Below are positions 1 through 16,286 of a DNA stretch of 17,813 bases, piece after piece. A program made the position numbers and the translations under genes. The number at the start of each line of letters is the position of its first letter. Within the stretch, counting starts at the first letter, position 1. Under the pieces are notes generated by a model, which was not told where the DNA came from, made no database searches, and saw only the letters and a program-made list of their open reading frames with translations. Source of the DNA: a virus (lineage: Duplodnaviria; Heunggongvirae; Uroviricota; Caudoviricetes); the IMG/VR virus record IMGVR_UViG_2531839664_000031, one strand, 5' to 3'.

Positions 1-981
1 AGGCTTCCGCTTATTTGCGAAGGCGGAGTTCGACCGCCTCTGGAAAAAATGATGCCACTGCTGGATAAGCTGCGTGAGCAGTACGGGGTCGGACCGGTAT
101 GCAGCGAACTGCATATTGCCCCGTCAACGTATTACCATTGTCAGCAACAGCGACATCATCCGGATAAACGCAGTGCCCGTGCGCAGCACGATGACTGGCT
201 GAAGAGAGAGATACAGCGCGTATACGATGAAAATCACCAGGTATACGGTGTGCGTAAAGTCTGGCGTCAGTTGTTACGGGAAGGTATCAGAGTGGCCAGA
301 TGCACTGTGGCACGTCTCATGGCAGTTATGGGACTTACCGGTGTTCTCCGGGGTAAAAAGGTCCGCACTACCGTCAGCCGGAGAGCCGTTGCCGCAGGCG
401 ACCGCGTAAACCGTCAGTTCGTGGCAGAACGTCCAGACCAGTTGTGGGTGGCTGATTTTACCTGGGTAAGCACATGGCAGGGCTTCGTTTATGTGGCGTT
501 CATCATTGATGTGTTCGCCGGATACATCGTGGGATGGCGGGTCTCATCATCCATGGAAACGGCATTCGTGCTGGATGCACTGGAGCAGGCGTTGTGGGCC
601 CGTCGGCCGTCCGGCACAATCCACCACAGTGATAAAGGTTCTCAGTATGTATCGCTGGCCTACACGCAGCGGCTTAAGGAAGCCGGCTTACTGGCATCAA
701 CAGGGAGTACTGGTGACTCGTATGACAACGCGATGGCGGAGAGCATCAATGGCCTTTACAAAGCGGAGGTAATACACCGTAAGCGCTGGAAAAACCGTGC
801 AGAAGTGGAACTGGCCACACTAACGTGGGTGGACTGGTATAACAATCGACGATTGCTGGGAAGGCTGGGCCATACTCCTCCGGCAGAAGCAGAAAAAGCT
901 TATTATGCTTCCATCGGAAACAATGATCTGGCAGCCTGAGTTCACAGATAAAACACTCTCCAGGAAACCCGGGGCGGTTCA
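1..981 (+). mobile_element. Partial IS3-family insertion sequence (IS629/IS1203/IS3411-like), 3' portion; the window starts inside the element
   Basis: orfA tail in frame 2 (..FAKAEFDRLWKK, stop 50-52) overlaps the orfB start in the -1 frame at an A6 run (44-49), the usual IS3-family frameshift layout. 296-aa orfB follows. Right terminus ..CCGGGGCGGTTCA ends at 981 (TG..CA-type end). Specific IS name is from memory of the OrfB sequence. Confidence 0.6.
49..939 (+). CDS. IS3-family transposase OrfB (DDE/rve integrase-like catalytic subunit), IS629/IS1203-like
   Basis: 296-aa ORF with typical IS3-family OrfB features: ..QLWVADFTW.., ..HHSDKGSQY.., ..YDNAMAES.. and a C-terminal ..LGHTPPAEAE.. 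tail. Starts in the -1 frame overlapping the orfA stop. Confidence 0.85.
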   Translation: MMPLLDKLREQYGVGPVCSELHIAPSTYYHCQQQRHHPDKRSARAQHDDWLKREIQRVYDENHQVYGVRKVWRQLLREGIRVARCTVARLMAVMGLTGVLRGKKVRTTVSRRAVAAGDRVNRQFVAERPDQLWVADFTWVSTWQGFVYVAFIIDVFAGYIVGWRVSSSMETAFVLDALEQALWARRPSGTIHHSDKGSQYVSLAYTQRLKEAGLLASTGSTGDSYDNAMAESINGLYKAEVIHRKRWKNRAEVELATLTWVDWYNNRRLLGRLGHTPPAEAEKAYYASIGNNDLAA

Positions 982-1143
982 GTGGGTTACGTAAGCTTCA
1001 GCGAGGCAGCTCACGCCATAACGGACTATATCGTTGGATATTACAGCGCACTAAGACCGCACGAATATAACGGTGGGTTACCCCCAAACGAATCGGAAAA
1101 TCGATACTGGAAAAACTCTAACTCGGTGGCCAGTTTTTGTTGA
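982..1143 (+). pseudogene. Orphan C-terminal tail of a DDE (rve-type) transposase, or alternatively 5' leader of the adjacent IS66-like element
   Basis: One frame reads ..SEAAHAITDYIVGYYSALRPHEYNGGLPPNESENRYWKNSNSVASFC*, matching the conserved C-terminal pattern of IS3/IS481-type transposases (YYN..RPH...L.P.E.E). No catalytic core or start codon is present; it begins directly after the IS629-like terminus. Confidence 0.3.
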
Positions 1144-2635
1144 CCACTTCAGAAAGCCAGTTCCGTCAGAAAGACCAGCAACTAAGTCTGGTTGAAGAGA
1201 CGGAGGCCTTCCTGTGCTCTGCACTGGCACGTGCCGAAGAAAAGATCGAAGAAGATGAACGGGAAATAGAACATCTGCAGACTCAGATAGAAAAACTGCG
1301 CCGGATGCTGTTCGGTACCCGTTCTGAAAAACTGCGTCGTGAAGTTGAACAGGCTGAGGCCCTGCTGAAACAACGCGAACAGGACAGCGATCGTTACAGT
1401 GGGCGGGAAGACGCTCCACAGGTTCCCCGCCAGTTGAGACAGCCGCGCCATCGTCGTCCGTTACCGGCACACCTTCCCCATGCAATACACCGTCTGGAGT
1501 CTGAAGAAAGCTGTTGCCCGGAGTGTGGCGGTGAGCTGGATTATCTGGAGGAAGTCAGTGCAGAACAACTGGAACTGGTGAGCAGCGCCCTGAAAGTGAT
1601 CCGCACTGTTCGGGTAAAAAAGCCTGTACAAAATGTGACTGCATCGTTGAAGCACCGGCGCCGTCCCGCCCGATAGAGCGTGGTATCGCGGGCCCCGGAT
1701 TACTTGCCCGCGTGTTAACGGGAAAATACTGCGAACAGCTGCCACTGTATCGTCAGAGTGAAATCTTTGCCCGACAGGGTGTCGAACTGAGCCGTGCATT
1801 ACTCTCCAACTGGGTTGACGCGTGCTGCCAGTTAATGACTCCGCTGAATGATGCCCTGTACCGTTATGTGATGAATACCCGCAAGCTTCACACTGACGAC
1901 ACACCGGTAAAGGTACTGGCACTGGGCCTGAAAAGACGAAAACAGGGCGCATCTGGACGTATGTCCGGAATGATCGCAATGCGGGTTCGTCATCTCCTCC
2001 GGCGGTCTGGTTCGCGTACTCACCGAACCGGCAGGGGAAACACCCGGAGCAACACCTCCGCCCCCTGCAGGCGGATGCGTTCAACGGTTACGATCGGCTG
2101 TTCAGTGCAGAACGTGAAGATGGTGCGCTGACAGAAGTTGCGTGCTGAGCCCATGTCCGGAGAAAAATCCACGATGTATACATCAGCAGCAAAAGTGCGA
2201 CGGCAGAAGAAGCCCTGAAGCGCATCAGTGAACTGTACGCCATCGAGGATGAAATACGGGGATTACCAGAGTCAGAGCGTCTTGAAGTCAGGCAGCAGCG
2301 AAGCAAAGCGTTACTGACGTCGCTGCATGAATGGATGGTGGAGAAGAATGGCACGCTGTCGAAAAAATCCAGACCAGGCGAAGCGTTCAGCTATGTACTG
2401 AATCAGTGGGACGCCCTCTGTTATTACAGTGATGACGGTCTGGCGGAGGCGGACAATAACACAGCGGAAAGAGCGCTTCGTGCCGTCTGTCTCGGGAAAA
2501 AGAATTACATGTTCTTCGGTAGCGATCACGGCGGCGAGCGTGGAGCACTGCTGTACGGGCTGATCGGCACCTGCCGTCTGAACGGTATCGATCCGGAAGC
2601 GTATCTGCGCCATATTCTGAGCGTACTACCGGAAT
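1137..2635 (+). pseudogene. IS66-family transposase (TnpC-like), inactivated by frameshifts and a nonsense codon and truncated at its 3' end by IS3
   Basis: Three consecutive ORFs in frames 0, 2 and 1 (1137-1676, 1712-2131, 2335-2673) together read as one IS66-type transposase: coiled-coil N-terminus with LFGTRSEKL, zinc-finger CPECGG..KACTKCDC, IERGIAGPGLLA, DDTPVKVLA, then ..GKKNYMFFGSD... Frame change at the A6 run 1616-1621, a second near 1925-1945, in-frame TGA at 2146-2148 where Trp is expected (ACWAHVRR context), and the reading frame runs into the IS3 left end at 2636. No ATG start and no tnpA/tnpB upstream. Confidence 0.75.
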
Positions 2636-2700
2636 TGATCTTACCCAGCAATAGTGGACACGCGGCTAAGTGAGTAAACTCTCAGTCAGAGGTGACTCAC

Positions 2701-3000
2701 ATGACAAAAACAGTATCAACCAGTAAAAAACCCCGTAAACAGCATTCGCCTGAATTTCGCAGTGAAGCCCTGAAGCTTGCTGAACGCATCGGTGTTACTG
2801 CCGCAGCCCGTGAACTCAGCCTGTATGAATCACAGCTCTACAACTGGCGCAGTAAACAGCAAAATCAGCAGACGTCTTCTGAACGTGAACTGGAGATGTC
2901 TACCGAGATTGCACGTCTCAAACGCCAGCTGGCAGAACGGGATGAAGAGCTGACCATCCTCCAAAAGGCCGCGACATACTTCGCGAAGCGCCTGAAATGA
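2701..3000 (+). CDS. insE: IS3 transposase OrfA (InsE), HTH DNA-binding subunit
   Basis: 99-aa product [29 protein letters not shown].. with a C-terminal leucine-zipper-like segment. ATG at 2701 (the ORF track starts 3 codons earlier at a GTG). Confidence 0.85.
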
Positions 3001-3862
3001 AGTATGTCTTTATTGAAAAACATCAGGCTGAGTTCAGCATCAAAGCAATGTGCCGCGTGCTCCGGGTGGCCCGCAGCGGCTGGTATACGTGGTGTCAGCG
3101 GCGGACAAGGATAAGTACATGTCAGCAGTTCCGCCAACACTGCGACAGCGTTGTCCTCGCGGCTTTTACCCGGTCAAAACAGCGTTACGGTGCCCCACGC
3201 CTGACGGATGAACTGCGTGCTCAGGGTTACCCCTTTACGTAAAAACCGTGGCGGCAAGCCTGCGCCGTCAGGGACTGAGGGCAAAGGCCTCCCGGAAGTT
3301 CAGCCCGGTCAGCTACCACGCACACGGCCTGCCTGTGTCAGAAAATCTGTTGGAGCAGGATTTTTACGCCAGTGGCCCGAACCAGAAGTGGGCAGGAGAC
3401 ATCACGTACTTACGTACAGATGAAGGCTGGCTGTATCTGGCAGTGGTCATTGACCTGTGGTCACGTGCCGTTATTGGCTGGTCAATGTCGCCACGCATGA
3501 CGGCGCAACTGGCCTGCGATGCCCTGCAGATGGCGCTGTGGCGGCGTAAGAGGCCCCGGAACGTTATCGTTCACACGGACCGTGGAGGCCAGTACTGTTC
3601 AGCAGATTATCAGGCGCAACTGAAGCGGCATAATCTGCGTGGAAGTATGAGCGCAAAAGGTTGCTGCTACGATAATGCCTGCGTGGAAAGCTTCTTTCAT
3701 TCGCTGAAAGTGGAATGTATCCATGGAGAACACTTTATCAGCCGGGAAATAATGCGGGCAACGGTGTTTAATTATATCGAATGTGATTACAATCGGTGGC
3801 GGCGGCACAGTTGGTGTGGCGGCCTCAGTCCGGAACAATTTGAAAACCAGAACCTCGCTTAG
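2997..3862 (+). pseudogene. insF: IS3 transposase OrfB (InsF), frameshifted
   Basis: Two ORFs (2997-3242 and 3248-3862) together read as Ins[23 protein letters not shown].. then ..[27 protein letters not shown]... The first ends ..GYPFT* and the second picks up ..[11 protein letters not shown].. in another frame, consistent with loss of one A near 3237-3240 (TTTACGTAAAAACC, where NVKTVAAS is expected). Confidence 0.8.
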
Positions 3863-4415
3863 GCCTGTGTCCATATTACGTGGGTAGGATCAGCTAACCT
3901 ACATGTGCAAAGCATGAAATTGGCCTCAGATTAATGTTAAGCGTCTTGCCGGACGCGTAATGTTAACTGGGGCTTTTCTCTATCTGCCTTTTGGTGTTCA
4001 TGCCTGAGGCAGATAGCCTCAAGCACCCGCAGCAATTCTAACTATCCAATAGATCAATGCCAACTTCTTTTCCTGCAACATCTCTCATCATAAGTGACCC
4101 AAATTCATCCAATCAGCACAAAAGAAACATTTAAAGCGTGAATGCTACCGAACGTTCATTTCAATTACATCGTTTTGATTTTTAACAGTTTTCACCTCAA
4201 CAAATCAAATGGCATTAGCATTCATCATGGAAGAAAGACTGATAAAAATGATCATTTTCAATGACTTATGATCACACCGGGTATTGCCAAGTCATTCCTT
4301 TTACGCCAGGATACCCACAAGTGAGTAGTCGAGGAGAGTTTGCCAATTTTTGCGATATAAATTTCAATGTCCGAAGAACCATTAATTGTTAATTGATTCT
4401 GTATAAGGTATTAAC

Positions 4416-5513
4416 ATGACAATTTCATATATTCCTATTCTGAAAGCGAAACGTTCTGAGTTATCAGCTTTATCGCAGCTATCCATTGAAAAGAAATCAA
4501 AAATTTTGCCATTACTCGAAATTGAACCAGTGCCAATTGACCCTGATTCAGGTATTGCCTTAAAGAGTTATAACGAGACTCTTATAGAGTTCGGAAAGAA
4601 AGTCTCAAAATCTTGCTCAGATATGCAAGGTGTTTATATTGATGGATTATTAATTGAAGAGCATTTTATTTCTCCTGAAGATCATTACCCTATAATAAAT
4701 GCGGTTAATCAAGTTAGAGATATGGGGATAAGAGTTATTCCTGTCAGTTCACCAACTCGCCCATCTAACTATAAAAGAGCGATTGATGAATTAATGCAGA
4801 ATGAAATATGCTTGAGATTAACCACGTTAGATCTGGTTAACCCACAATTAATAACGCATTACATTAATCATCTGGGAATTCCTTTATCAAATATTGATAT
4901 AATTATTGACTTAAGAGATGAGTTAACCGAGGATAAAATTAATTCCGGCGAACTATATACTTTGGCAATGGGATTGATAAACAATCTGGCGCACCTCAAT
5001 GAATACAGAAAAGTGATTCTTTCTGGGGGTTCATTTCCTACAGATCTCAGTGATATTTCTGTTGGTCTATATTCTCAACCTCGAATCGAGTGGATTTTAT
5101 GGCAGAGTTTAATGAATAGAAAAGAACTTGCCAGAAATGTGATTTATAGTGATTATGGAGTACAGCACCCCGACTTTAATAGGCTTTCGACGCGATTCCC
5201 TAGCGTATCTGCCAGCGTCAGATACTCTGGAGATAATGACTTTTGGGTATTTCGAGGAAGAGTAGCTAATCGCTTTGGTTATGAACAATATGGTAAACAT
5301 AGTGAGGATATTCTTGCTCATCGAGAATATTCAGGGCCTACATTCTGTGCGGGAGATAGAGACATAGAATATTATGCAAACGAGTATCAAGCCTACAAAG
5401 CCAATCCCTCTGGTAACTATAAATTTGGTAGCCCAGAGGTATGGCGTAGGATTGGGCAAAACCATCACATAACTAAGGTTGTTGAGCAACTCGCCACTCT
5501 TTACGGGCTTTAA
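4416..5513 (+). CDS. Uncharacterised 365-aa protein; resembles, from memory, proteins annotated as 'beta family protein' (the sce7725-type partner of sce7726-family proteins)
   Basis: 1.1-kb ORF in AT-rich DNA, which is unlikely by chance. ATG at 4416 preceded by AAGGT at 4402-4406. N-terminus MTISYIPILKAKRSELSAL. Alternating hydrophobic strand-like segments (YIPIL, VYIDGLL, IRVIPV, ICLRL, IDIIIDL, KVILSGG, VIYSDYG) suggest an alpha/beta fold. No recognisable catalytic motif. Family recollection is unverified. Confidence 0.7.
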   Translation: MTISYIPILKAKRSELSALSQLSIEKKSKILPLLEIEPVPIDPDSGIALKSYNETLIEFGKKVSKSCSDMQGVYIDGLLIEEHFISPEDHYPIINAVNQVRDMGIRVIPVSSPTRPSNYKRAIDELMQNEICLRLTTLDLVNPQLITHYINHLGIPLSNIDIIIDLRDELTEDKINSGELYTLAMGLINNLAHLNEYRKVILSGGSFPTDLSDISVGLYSQPRIEWILWQSLMNRKELARNVIYSDYGVQHPDFNRLSTRFPSVSASVRYSGDNDFWVFRGRVANRFGYEQYGKHSEDILAHREYSGPTFCAGDRDIEYYANEYQAYKANPSGNYKFGSPEVWRRIGQNHHITKVVEQLATLYGL

Positions 5514-6051
5514 GTTTAACTCGAACAGCTTCACGAAGCTCGCCAACATCCATACTATTGGCGAGTTTTGACCATAAGACGCGTTTAGGTTTATTTTTCA
5601 AATTCTGTAGCTCCCCTACATCACTTAATAGGGAAAGCAATTCATCTTTCCAAAGAAGCATTGTTAAGGAAAGTTTGTCCACTTGTGGATTCAACTTGCT
5701 AGTTCGAATTGTTTTTAAATGGATACCTTGCCGTGCACCTTGCGTAACTTGCTTTATCCCCCACCATGATGGAACTATGCTTAAAGCATCATAAAGATGG
5801 CAATCAGAGACAACCAAAGTTACTTTATCCATCACTGATGAGTAATGTTGCACCTGCGCTGGTAATCTGAGCAAGTTATCACTCTTGCTCTTCAACTCAT
5901 AACCATGTATAAGCCCATTGATCACTGCTATATCAGCTCTGCTAGCCCCTAGATTCATCGTAAACTCATCAATGATTAGGGTGTCAGGATCTTTATGATG
6001 ATCTCTCAGAATCTTGGCATGCACAGCCTTTCTTACATCAATGTCTCTCAT
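5473..6051 (-). CDS. Uncharacterised 192-aa protein with a PD-(D/E)xK-like nuclease motif; resembles, from memory, 'sce7726 family' proteins
   Basis: Convergent with the 365-aa gene and overlapping its 3' end by 41 nt. Motif ..IIDEF..-..RADIAVINGLIHGYELKSKSD.. fits the D-x11-E-x-K signature of restriction-endonuclease-fold nucleases. Basic C-terminal tail. No clear Shine-Dalgarno before ATG 6051, so the start is uncertain. Confidence 0.6.
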   Translation of the reverse strand: MRDIDVRKAVHAKILRDHHKDPDTLIIDEFTMNLGASRADIAVINGLIHGYELKSKSDNLLRLPAQVQHYSSVMDKVTLVVSDCHLYDALSIVPSWWGIKQVTQGARQGIHLKTIRTSKLNPQVDKLSLTMLLWKDELLSLLSDVGELQNLKNKPKRVLWSKLANSMDVGELREAVRVKLKARKEWRVAQQP

Positions 6052-6373
6052 ACCATAGTTGCGCTTTCATCGACTCTCTCAAGCCATGATTCTATATCAT
6101 GGTTCGCATGAATGCCATTTGATATGACCAGTGGTTAAACATTGCACAGAAAAGTGGATGTGTATTTTAACAAAAGCAATGACGGCTAACCATGTTGGTA
6201 TGTCGATAAAATGTTTCAACGTAAGCATTATCTGTTCCGCCCTTTCGGGCGGCCTCCTGATGTTCTGAGGGTGCAGAAATCCCTCCGGTTAAGGATTAAA
6301 TTTTATTTACAGAACTGAATTTAATTATTCAGATATACGTATCTGTAACCTTACTAACCTACTCACTGGATGC

Positions 6374-6847
6374 CTATTTCATAAAAATAATCCAGTGGGT
6401 TTTATCGTTTTTTCCTGTTCGTTGACCGATAACAGGTTTTCTGTCGGTCAGTGCCAATATCTGGCGAACAGGTATTTGCGTTTCATTCCATTTAAAAATC
6501 AGAACGCCGTATGGACGCAACACACGAAAGGCTTCTTTAAATCCCTGCCGCAAATCATCACGCCAGGTATCTTTATTCAGCCGTCCATATTTCTTTCCCA
6601 TCCTGGCGTTATCACCAACACGCTCAAGATGCGGAGGATCGAATATAACCATCGAAAAAGATGCGTCTGCAAATGGTAGTGCACGAAAATCAGCTATCAG
6701 ATCAGGACTGATAATCAGGCGTCGTCCATCACACAATGTGTGCTCTTCCTTTCTGATATCGCTAAATATCGCCCGGTCGTCATTCTTATCGAACCAGAAC
6801 ATGCGACTGCCACAGCACATATCAAGAATGGTTGCCGGTGCACTCAC
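6374..6847 (-). CDS. Small SAM-dependent methyltransferase-like protein (putative phage DNA methyltransferase)
   Basis: 157 aa. Motif I-like LDMCCGS near the N-terminus and motif IV-like FDPPH (DPPY/H type) about 60 residues later. GTG start with AGGAGG 6-8 nt upstream, overlapping the stop of the upstream gene by 4 nt. Confidence 0.6.
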   Translation of the reverse strand: MSAPATILDMCCGSRMFWFDKNDDRAIFSDIRKEEHTLCDGRRLIISPDLIADFRALPFADASFSMVIFDPPHLERVGDNARMGKKYGRLNKDTWRDDLRQGFKEAFRVLRPYGVLIFKWNETQIPVRQILALTDRKPVIGQRTGKNDKTHWIIFMK

Positions 6848-15889: not shown

Positions 15890-16084
15890 ATGAGATATGA
15901 CAATGTTAAACCATGTCCATTTTGTGGTTGTCCATCAGTAACGGTGAAAGCCATTTCAGGATATTACCGAGCGAAGTGTAACGGATGCGAATCCCGAACC
16001 GGTTATGGTGGAAGTGAAAAAGAAGCACTCGAAAGATGGAATAAACGAACCACTGGAAATAATAATGGAGGTGTTCATGTATAA
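15890..16084 (+). CDS. ralR: RalR (Lar), restriction-alleviation protein, reported as the toxin of a type I toxin-antitoxin pair
   Basis: 64 aa from ATG 15890 (MRYDNVKPCPFCGCPSVTVKAISGYYRAKCNGCESRTGYGG..), with a C-x2-C ... C-x2-C zinc-ribbon pattern. A partner antisense sRNA (RalA) is expected nearby, but I could not place it from sequence. Confidence 0.85.
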   Translation: MRYDNVKPCPFCGCPSVTVKAISGYYRAKCNGCESRTGYGGSEKEALERWNKRTTGNNNGGVHV

Positions 16085-16286
16085 AATTACCGCCACTATT
16101 GAAAAGGAAGGTGGCACTCCTACTAACTGGACAAGATATTCAAAATCTAAACTAACGAAATCAGAATGCGAAAAAATGCTCTCAGGTAAAAAAGAAGCAG
16201 GCGTTTCCAGAGAGCAGAAAGTAAAACTGATAAATTTTAATTGCGAGAAACTTCAGTCCTCGAGAATTGCATTGTATTCAAATTAA
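16077..16286 (+). CDS. ydaC: YdaC, small Rac prophage protein (69 aa)
   Basis: ATG 16077 with GGAGG 6 nt upstream, overlapping the ralR stop. MYKITATIEKEGGTPTNWTRYSKSKLTKSECEKML.. Confidence 0.8.
   Translation: MYKITATIEKEGGTPTNWTRYSKSKLTKSECEKMLSGKKEAGVSREQKVKLINFNCEKLQSSRIALYSN

Follow-up and report, generated by a model that had tools for sequence, protein, structure and literature searches.

Two validated anti-phage systems without known mechanism contain a beta-type protein. The gop-beta-cII genes of P4 protect against lambda and P1, Gop being toxic without Beta (PMC9122126), and the system kills the cell upon expression of the phage gene orf184 (bioRxiv 10.1101/2023.04.06.535777). PD-lambda-2 is composed of a HigB-like protein (A), an Xre-IrrE peptidase (B) and a beta-like protein (C) (Vassallo et al., 2022; PMC9519451); the IrrE-like B is toxic and is neutralised by the HigB-like A, and the beta-like C is required for defence (PMC9519451). 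No role was assigned to cII in the P4 and PD-lambda-2 studies (PMC9122126; bioRxiv 10.1101/2023.04.06.535777; PMC9519451). Here, we analyse a relative of P4 cII that is encoded together with a beta gene in the IMG/VR virus record IMGVR_UViG_2531839664_000031 (Caudoviricetes), a stretch of 17,813 nucleotides (nt) that is referred to as the window. The best overall explanation of this locus, which we regard as reasonably probable, is that a nuclease-fold cII protein and Beta form a prophage-borne, two-gene anti-phage module. The pair is organized as follows:

4416..5513, plus strand: Beta_protein family gene, 365 amino acids (aa), a relative of P4 beta and PD-Lambda-2_C, predicted TIM barrel
5473..6051, minus strand: gene of a 192-aa protein assigned to the sce7726 / P4 cII family (ATG-to-stop open reading frame, stop included)
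5473..5513, both strands: convergent 3' overlap of cII and beta, 41 nt, dual coding
4029..4415, plus strand: beta upstream non-coding region, without a gop-like open reading frame
6052..6332, minus strand: cII upstream non-coding region, presumed promoter region, which accompanies the cassette in further E. coli prophages

P4 cII (NP_042034; RefSeq name "sce7726 family protein") is homologous to the cII protein of the window over residues 22-183 (28% identity, E 2e-17) and keeps its E...D...ExK...Qxxx[YF] residues (IINE...ADLA...FEIKS). In both cases cII is convergent to beta and the genes reside on a mobile element of E. coli. The two loci differ in that P4 cII is longer (264 aa, with an extended C-terminus), in that P4 beta and cII are separated by 27 nt and an annotated terminator whereas the window pair overlaps, and in that Gop, the toxic membrane protein encoded upstream of beta in P4, is missing from the window pair. 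Moreover, Beta of the window shares only 23% identity with P4 beta. Among the components of the PADLOC gop_beta_cll system, beta and cII were found in the window and gop was not: a tblastn search with P4 Gop gave a best E of 0.44 against the window, and no open reading frame longer than 43 aa is present within 3875-4415, upstream of beta. Gop was detected in none of the other beta-cII loci (0/80), P4 being its only carrier in this set. In the P4 protein (locus L001, 4821-5222), two N-terminal segments are hydrophobic and the tail behind them is charged and helix-like; because of these features, the protein looks like a small membrane toxin.

Of the PD-lambda-2 components, C is matched in the window, whereas A and B, though recognisable in other loci, were not found; neither the HigB-like nor the Xre-IrrE gene is encoded upstream of beta next to the window pair. 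As no gop, HigB or IrrE gene is present, the window pair corresponds to the bare beta-cII core of Gop-beta-cII and PD-lambda-2. PD-lambda-2-type operons (12 loci fetched for this study and the additional loci L095 and L098) show the same convergent, overlapping cII gene as the window, although cII lies outside the published three-gene definition of PD-lambda-2.

The cII protein matches NCBIfam NF033832 (sce7726 family) over all 184 model positions (residues 1-184; E = 1.7e-56, 191.1 bits at a cut-off of 70), the PADLOC "cll" model (2.4e-28) and PHROG 984, a group of unknown function (3e-52). Its database homologues, including a 99%-identical cluster, are all precomputed as members of Pfam PF26915 (Phage_P4_cII); a local Pfam scan of cII yielded no match, the copy used apparently being without the PF26915 model. 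Phage Rac-SA53 encodes an identical (100%) protein, annotated as "CII phage-like protein." In E. coli O121:H19 genomes that contain the window sequence, RefSeq labels the gene pair "beta family protein" and "sce7726 family protein." The names given to homologues vary: they include "regulatory protein," "DNA repair protein MmcB-like" (one source) and "exonuclease" (the annotators of Gordonia phage Powerball). Judged by these sequence matches, the 192-aa protein is a new instance of the catalogued sce7726 / P4 cII family and not a new kind of protein.

The original prediction had described a PD-(D/E)xK-type motif (D-x11-E-x-K) at 5473-6051, and missed both the minus strand and the named family; a plus-strand reading of this interval was rejected, as a translation check showed its frame to be broken by many stops. 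The motif itself was found as described: the segment DTLIIDEFTMNLGASRADIAVINGLIHGYELKSKSD is present in the 192-aa protein and yields D40, exactly 11 further residues and then E52-L-K54. Considered alone, it is no more than expected by chance. The strict D-x11-E-x-K pattern appears in 4.6% and the relaxed pattern D-x(8-30)-[DE]-x-K in 83% of shuffles of the cII protein, and the strict form also occurs in two unrelated window proteins (DnaC-like and DUF1627), so that the motif was rejected as stand-alone evidence. It is regarded as real because it is conserved across an alignment of 270 family members, consisting of the cII query and 269 retrieved relatives. The family is large: a word-indexed search with cII returned 302 relatives, and a full profile scan of 1.84 billion representatives returned 5447 cII-family clusters at E <= 0.001.

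Within the alignment, E52, K54, D58, R62 and Q66 are found in 270/270 sequences, D40 in 269 (with E in the remaining one) and E29 in 266, the remainder being gaps. Y70 is kept in 262 sequences and replaced by F in six. This conservation agrees with the expectation of the original prediction for homologues, and so does the overall architecture, as the anticipated alpha-beta-beta-beta-alpha-beta core is seen in an AlphaFold2 model of cII (46-sequence alignment; mean predicted local distance difference test score, pLDDT, 94.1; predicted template modelling score, pTM, 0.89). The N-terminal part of the model consists of helices 3-14 and 16-20, strands 25-32, 37-44 and 48-54, helix 63-73, strand 76-82 and helix 83-92; a beta-hairpin (98-116) and a helical C-terminal domain follow. 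D40 is situated on strand 2, E52 and K54 on strand 3 and Q66-x3-Y70 on the next helix. According to this model, cII very probably has a PD-(D/E)xK (restriction-endonuclease-type) fold, with the following predicted domains and catalytic codons:

5692..6051, minus strand: PD-(D/E)xK nuclease-fold domain and beta-hairpin (98-116), residues 1-120
5488..5676, minus strand: basic helical C-terminal domain, residues 126-188 (helices 126-130, 135-144, 156-166, 169-181 and 185-188)
5965-5967, minus strand: codon of E29
5932-5934, minus strand: codon of D40
5896-5898, minus strand: codon of E52
5890-5892, minus strand: codon of K54
5854-5856, minus strand: codon of Q66

The lysine- and arginine-rich C-terminus noted earlier was likewise recovered, as part of a separate helical domain: the last 43 residues contain 12 K/R vs. 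4 D/E, and the calculated isoelectric point of residues 126-192 is 10.1. In this domain, E137 and R183 are invariant (270/270 each) and W134, K181 and W186 nearly so. The basic helical domain probably holds nucleic acid.

Matches of the cII model in fold comparisons include many restriction enzymes. Foldseek gave weaker but agreeing results, with SfsA as the best match (probability 0.97), followed by NucS, Can2 and McrC. A sequence-profile search of the PDB with the cII family retrieved no match even at E = 10, which indicates that the family is a distinct branch of the superfamily without a close solved structure; its link to solved nucleases is one of modelled fold only. Consistent with this, the Can2 nuclease domain, NucS/EndoMS, SfsA and type II restriction enzymes share 10-16% sequence identity with cII and differ from it in their accessory domains (CARF, OB-like and others). 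The MmcB-like / DUF1052 protein SPO1766 (PDB 3dnx) shows no detectable sequence relationship to the cII family profile; it comprises 146 aa, lacks the basic helical C-terminal domain and is not known to be linked to a beta-type partner. The Q-x3-Y helix motif of cII recalls RecB/Cas4-type nucleases, although these are absent among the top structural matches.

The partner protein matches Pfam Beta_protein (PF14350; 3.8e-52) and PADLOC PD-Lambda-2_C (1.8e-41), but the PADLOC "beta" model only at 2.1e-4; no NCBIfam model, including NF033831 (sce7725), was matched at E <= 0.001. Its AlphaFold2 model (pLDDT 92.2) shows a TIM barrel with a helical C-terminal extension. Most invariant positions hold charged or aromatic residues (K12, E15, D76, R115, R134, D165, R223, R240, D246, R269, Y270, R344 and H351), and analysis of the invariant columns revealed no conserved cysteines.

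The generality of the pairing was assessed in 82 loci, i.e., 80 loci fetched by cII-specific peptide patterns plus P4 and Rac-SA53, from Proteobacteria, Firmicutes, Actinobacteria, Acidobacteria, Chloroflexi, Myxococcota, candidate phyla radiation (CPR) bacteria and others. A convergent beta gene is located immediately downstream of cII in 79 of them, and among the three exceptions are two that run into a contig edge. Overlapping 3' ends were observed for 68 of 72 non-redundant pairs, with lengths of 11-158 nt (median 53), and in every one of these 68 the overlap length equals 2 modulo 3. Therefore, both genes have kept a fixed frame relative to each other ever since the common ancestor of the pairs. 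Five loci were looked up from the beta side, regardless of cII, and all five possess a convergent, overlapping PF26915 gene. The beta-cII pair is thus an obligate, or near-obligate, two-gene unit to which other genes attach variably. An Xre-IrrE peptidase gene is located upstream of beta in 12 of the fetched loci (L020, L037, L041, L043, L047, L057, L058, L073, L075, L076, L079 and L082), nine of which also encode a HigB-like protein (absent from L037, L043 and L076); in L020, for example, PADLOC models PD-Lambda-2_B and PD-Lambda-2_A are matched at 1.8e-150 and 9.6e-41, respectively. Two beta-anchored loci (L095 and L098) carry DUF6932 and an Xre-IrrE protein at this position, and in some loci unannotated proteins of about 200 aa are found. 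Pairs without attached genes are that of the window and that of a second E. coli subtype, located between lysis genes and Nu1 of another lambdoid prophage. The HigB-IrrE pair, in turn, occurs without beta and cII on plasmids (L092-L094). No E. coli-named protein was among the best 120 matches of a profile search with PD-lambda-2-type Betas.

Two further phage loci were noted. In Gordonia phage Powerball (L101, 2372-4184), the cII homologue (gene 32) and the convergent gene 33, a presumed beta homologue, overlap by 89 nt and are situated between HicAB and the integrase, in a region that is a frequent site of prophage-mediated defence genes in temperate actinophages. In Myxococcus phage Mx4 (L102, 2492-3061), a solo cII homologue (35% identity) is part of a co-directional gene array without beta, and the nuclease may therefore work independently.

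In the window, the 41-nt overlap carries the codons of cII K181, R183 and W186 as well as those of beta residues 353-365. A scan of 3870-6400 revealed no terminator in or near the overlap, which, together with the frame-locked geometry, suggests that the cII and beta transcripts run into each other. The same scan found promoter and terminator counts not above those of shuffles; the sole promoter-like consensus match upstream of cII is located at 6118-6089. A 15/16-nt match (ATCAAATGGCATT core) is present upstream of both genes, at 4201-4216 and 6111-6126, in the same gene-relative orientation. A shared operator was rejected as an explanation of this match, which is probably due to chance, as other loci lack it, unrelated Stenotrophomonas repeats aside.

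The genomic context of the pair is that of an accessory insert. The beta-cII island has a guanine-cytosine (GC) content of 34-41%, as compared to about 51-57% in the left and 49-55% in the right flank. The host element is a Rac-like E. coli O121 prophage, whose nin region carries the module as a low-GC insert ("moron"). To the left of the module, a sok RNA remnant and insertion sequence (IS) elements are found, and to its right a methyltransferase gene and the replication genes of the Rac-like prophage, which also carries RecE, RecT, RalA and an integrase; its Rac-like identity is confirmed by the RalA match. In phage Rac-SA53, the identical pair is located in the nin region between replication genes and hok/mok plus Q. 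The block that is common to genomes with different neighbours ends near position 6332, and the cassette was detected in 93 of 5426 complete E. coli genomes (~1.7%). The methyltransferase gene is specific to the O121-type prophage and is not part of the module, as the neighbours of the cassette differ in other E. coli strains. The IS-rich region 1-3870 replaces the distal nin/Q side of the prophage. An intact hok/mok locus is present at the sok site in Rac-SA53 and other E. coli strains, so that in the window the hok toxin side was apparently lost through the IS insertion. The neighbouring features are:

within 1-3870: IS3-family element with an ALIL frameshift pseudoknot (8-123)
1137-2673: IS66-family transposase fragments in several frames
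2692-3862: second IS3-family element
3858-4028, minus strand: sok antitoxin RNA (Rfam, 80.9 bits), adjoining an IS end at about 3870
6374-6847, minus strand: class I S-adenosylmethionine (SAM)-dependent methyltransferase, directly upstream of the cII promoter region
16083-16261, minus strand: RalA small RNA, antitoxin of the RalR/RalA type I toxin-antitoxin system of the Rac prophage (225 bits)

In the proposed mechanism, the N-terminal PD-(D/E)xK domain would provide a complete predicted metal-binding and catalytic set (E29, D40, E52-x-K54 and Q66-x3-Y70), and cII would act as one half of an obligate module whose other half is the convergent, 3'-overlapping beta gene with its predicted TIM barrel product. 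The module would protect the lysogen against other phages. cII would supply a Mg2+-dependent nuclease activity that is harmless in uninfected cells and is engaged during infection, either directly or through Beta, with sensor and effector roles putatively divided between the partners. Overlapping convergent transcription would couple the expression of both genes, possibly as mutual antisense. We consider it likely that cII is an active nuclease. That it is also the effector of the module, as the original prediction had assumed to be probable, is better described as possible: apart from cII, no "weapon" can be recognised in the two-gene form, which makes such a role plausible, and several observations stand against it.

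These observations weigh on the module as a whole or on the part of cII in it. The published defence tests cover three-gene relatives only (PMC9122126; PMC9519451), and the toxic components of P4 and PD-lambda-2 are Gop and the IrrE-like protein, respectively, and not cII (PMC9122126; PMC9519451). The defending PD-lambda-2 clone reaches only 387-396 bp past its three genes and is therefore too short for an intact convergent cII; in PD-lambda-2, the nuclease may thus be dispensable. The E. coli strains PEC209 and PEC240 carry independent IS1 insertions in beta next to an intact cII that is 100% identical to that of the window. From these broken beta genes it follows that cII is not a constitutive toxin in need of Beta as an antidote, and it may even be beta, and not cII, that is selected against. 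The insertions (L090, PEC209, 3017-4890; L091, PEC240, 1501-3372) differ in site and orientation within otherwise near-identical cassettes. Separately, 123 "partial" beta proteins form one database cluster (P0304), a hint that truncation of beta is common. The active-site geometry, including the presumed clustering of the four catalytic side chains, was read from the topology and secondary structure of the model. Finally, a literature search returned no biochemical or genetic test and no nuclease or toxicity data for any cII/sce7726 protein; for sce7726, sce7725 and PF14350 it returned genome-annotation mentions or nothing.

Much of this evidence would also fit a function of cII as a nuclease-fold regulator or accessory factor, which might bind DNA or process the overlapping transcripts and thereby set Beta levels, while Beta, host or phage factors execute the response. 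In favour of this are the name cII, which is historical, and source names like "regulatory protein"; the phase-locked convergent overlap also suggests regulatory coupling. Furthermore, the PD-lambda-2 clone defended probably without an intact cII, the toxicity of the relatives maps to Gop and the IrrE-like protein, and cII is tolerated without Beta in PEC209 and PEC240. However, family scans identified no helix-turn-helix or other classical regulator domain in cII, and the invariance of E29, D40, E52, K54 and Q66 across 270 sequences from many phyla implies that catalysis, and not only binding, is under selection. A mainly regulatory or accessory role is considered rather unlikely.

Less likely still is a role in DNA repair or recombination, in which cII would be an MmcB-like or NucS-like nuclease serving the mobile element, would act on damaged or branched DNA and would be linked to defence loci only secondarily. 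The name "DNA repair protein MmcB-like" given to one homologue, the solo homologue of phage Mx4 and the presence of RecE/RecT on the same Rac-type prophage are consistent with such a function. Yet the MmcB resemblance is confined to the level of the fold (20% identity), as the family profile finds no solved relative at E = 10; the pairing with beta is near-obligate, and the module occupies variable accessory positions adjacent to toxin-antitoxin and defence genes, not replication or recombination operons. A pair resembling restriction-modification (R-M) systems, in which Beta as a TIM-barrel enzyme would modify self DNA or RNA and cII would cut unmodified nucleic acid, is highly improbable. 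Convergent pairs of a nuclease and an enzyme gene are typical of R-M systems, and Beta neutralises the toxin in P4 (PMC9122126), but strains with two independent disruptions of beta and an intact cII are viable, contrary to the prediction for an R-M arrangement, and Beta lacks the conserved cysteines of a TGT zinc site. A prophage-borne anti-phage module with a likely active nuclease remains our preferred reading, with the effector assignment of cII kept as a possibility.

With regard to annotation, the gain is modest, as a "sce7726 family protein" becomes a putative nuclease of the P4 cII type. The more interesting by-products are the universal frame-locked overlap and the beta-cII core that is common to two separately listed defence systems. 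For experimenters, suitable targets would be the overlap, the two-gene fragment 3900-6332 and the residues D40, E52 and K54. As a tentative proposal, which we consider somewhat doubtful, beta-cII may represent an autonomous, ancient immune core, with the frame-locked overlap as part of its mechanism (mutual antisense or transcription collision); Gop-beta-cII and PD-lambda-2 would then be this core with bolt-on toxins, and cII an overlooked fourth gene of PD-lambda-2. The beta-cII pair occurs alone in prophages of pathogenic E. coli. This would also suggest that the rules of defence-finding programs overlook the gop-less form, carried by some 1.7% of complete E. coli genomes.

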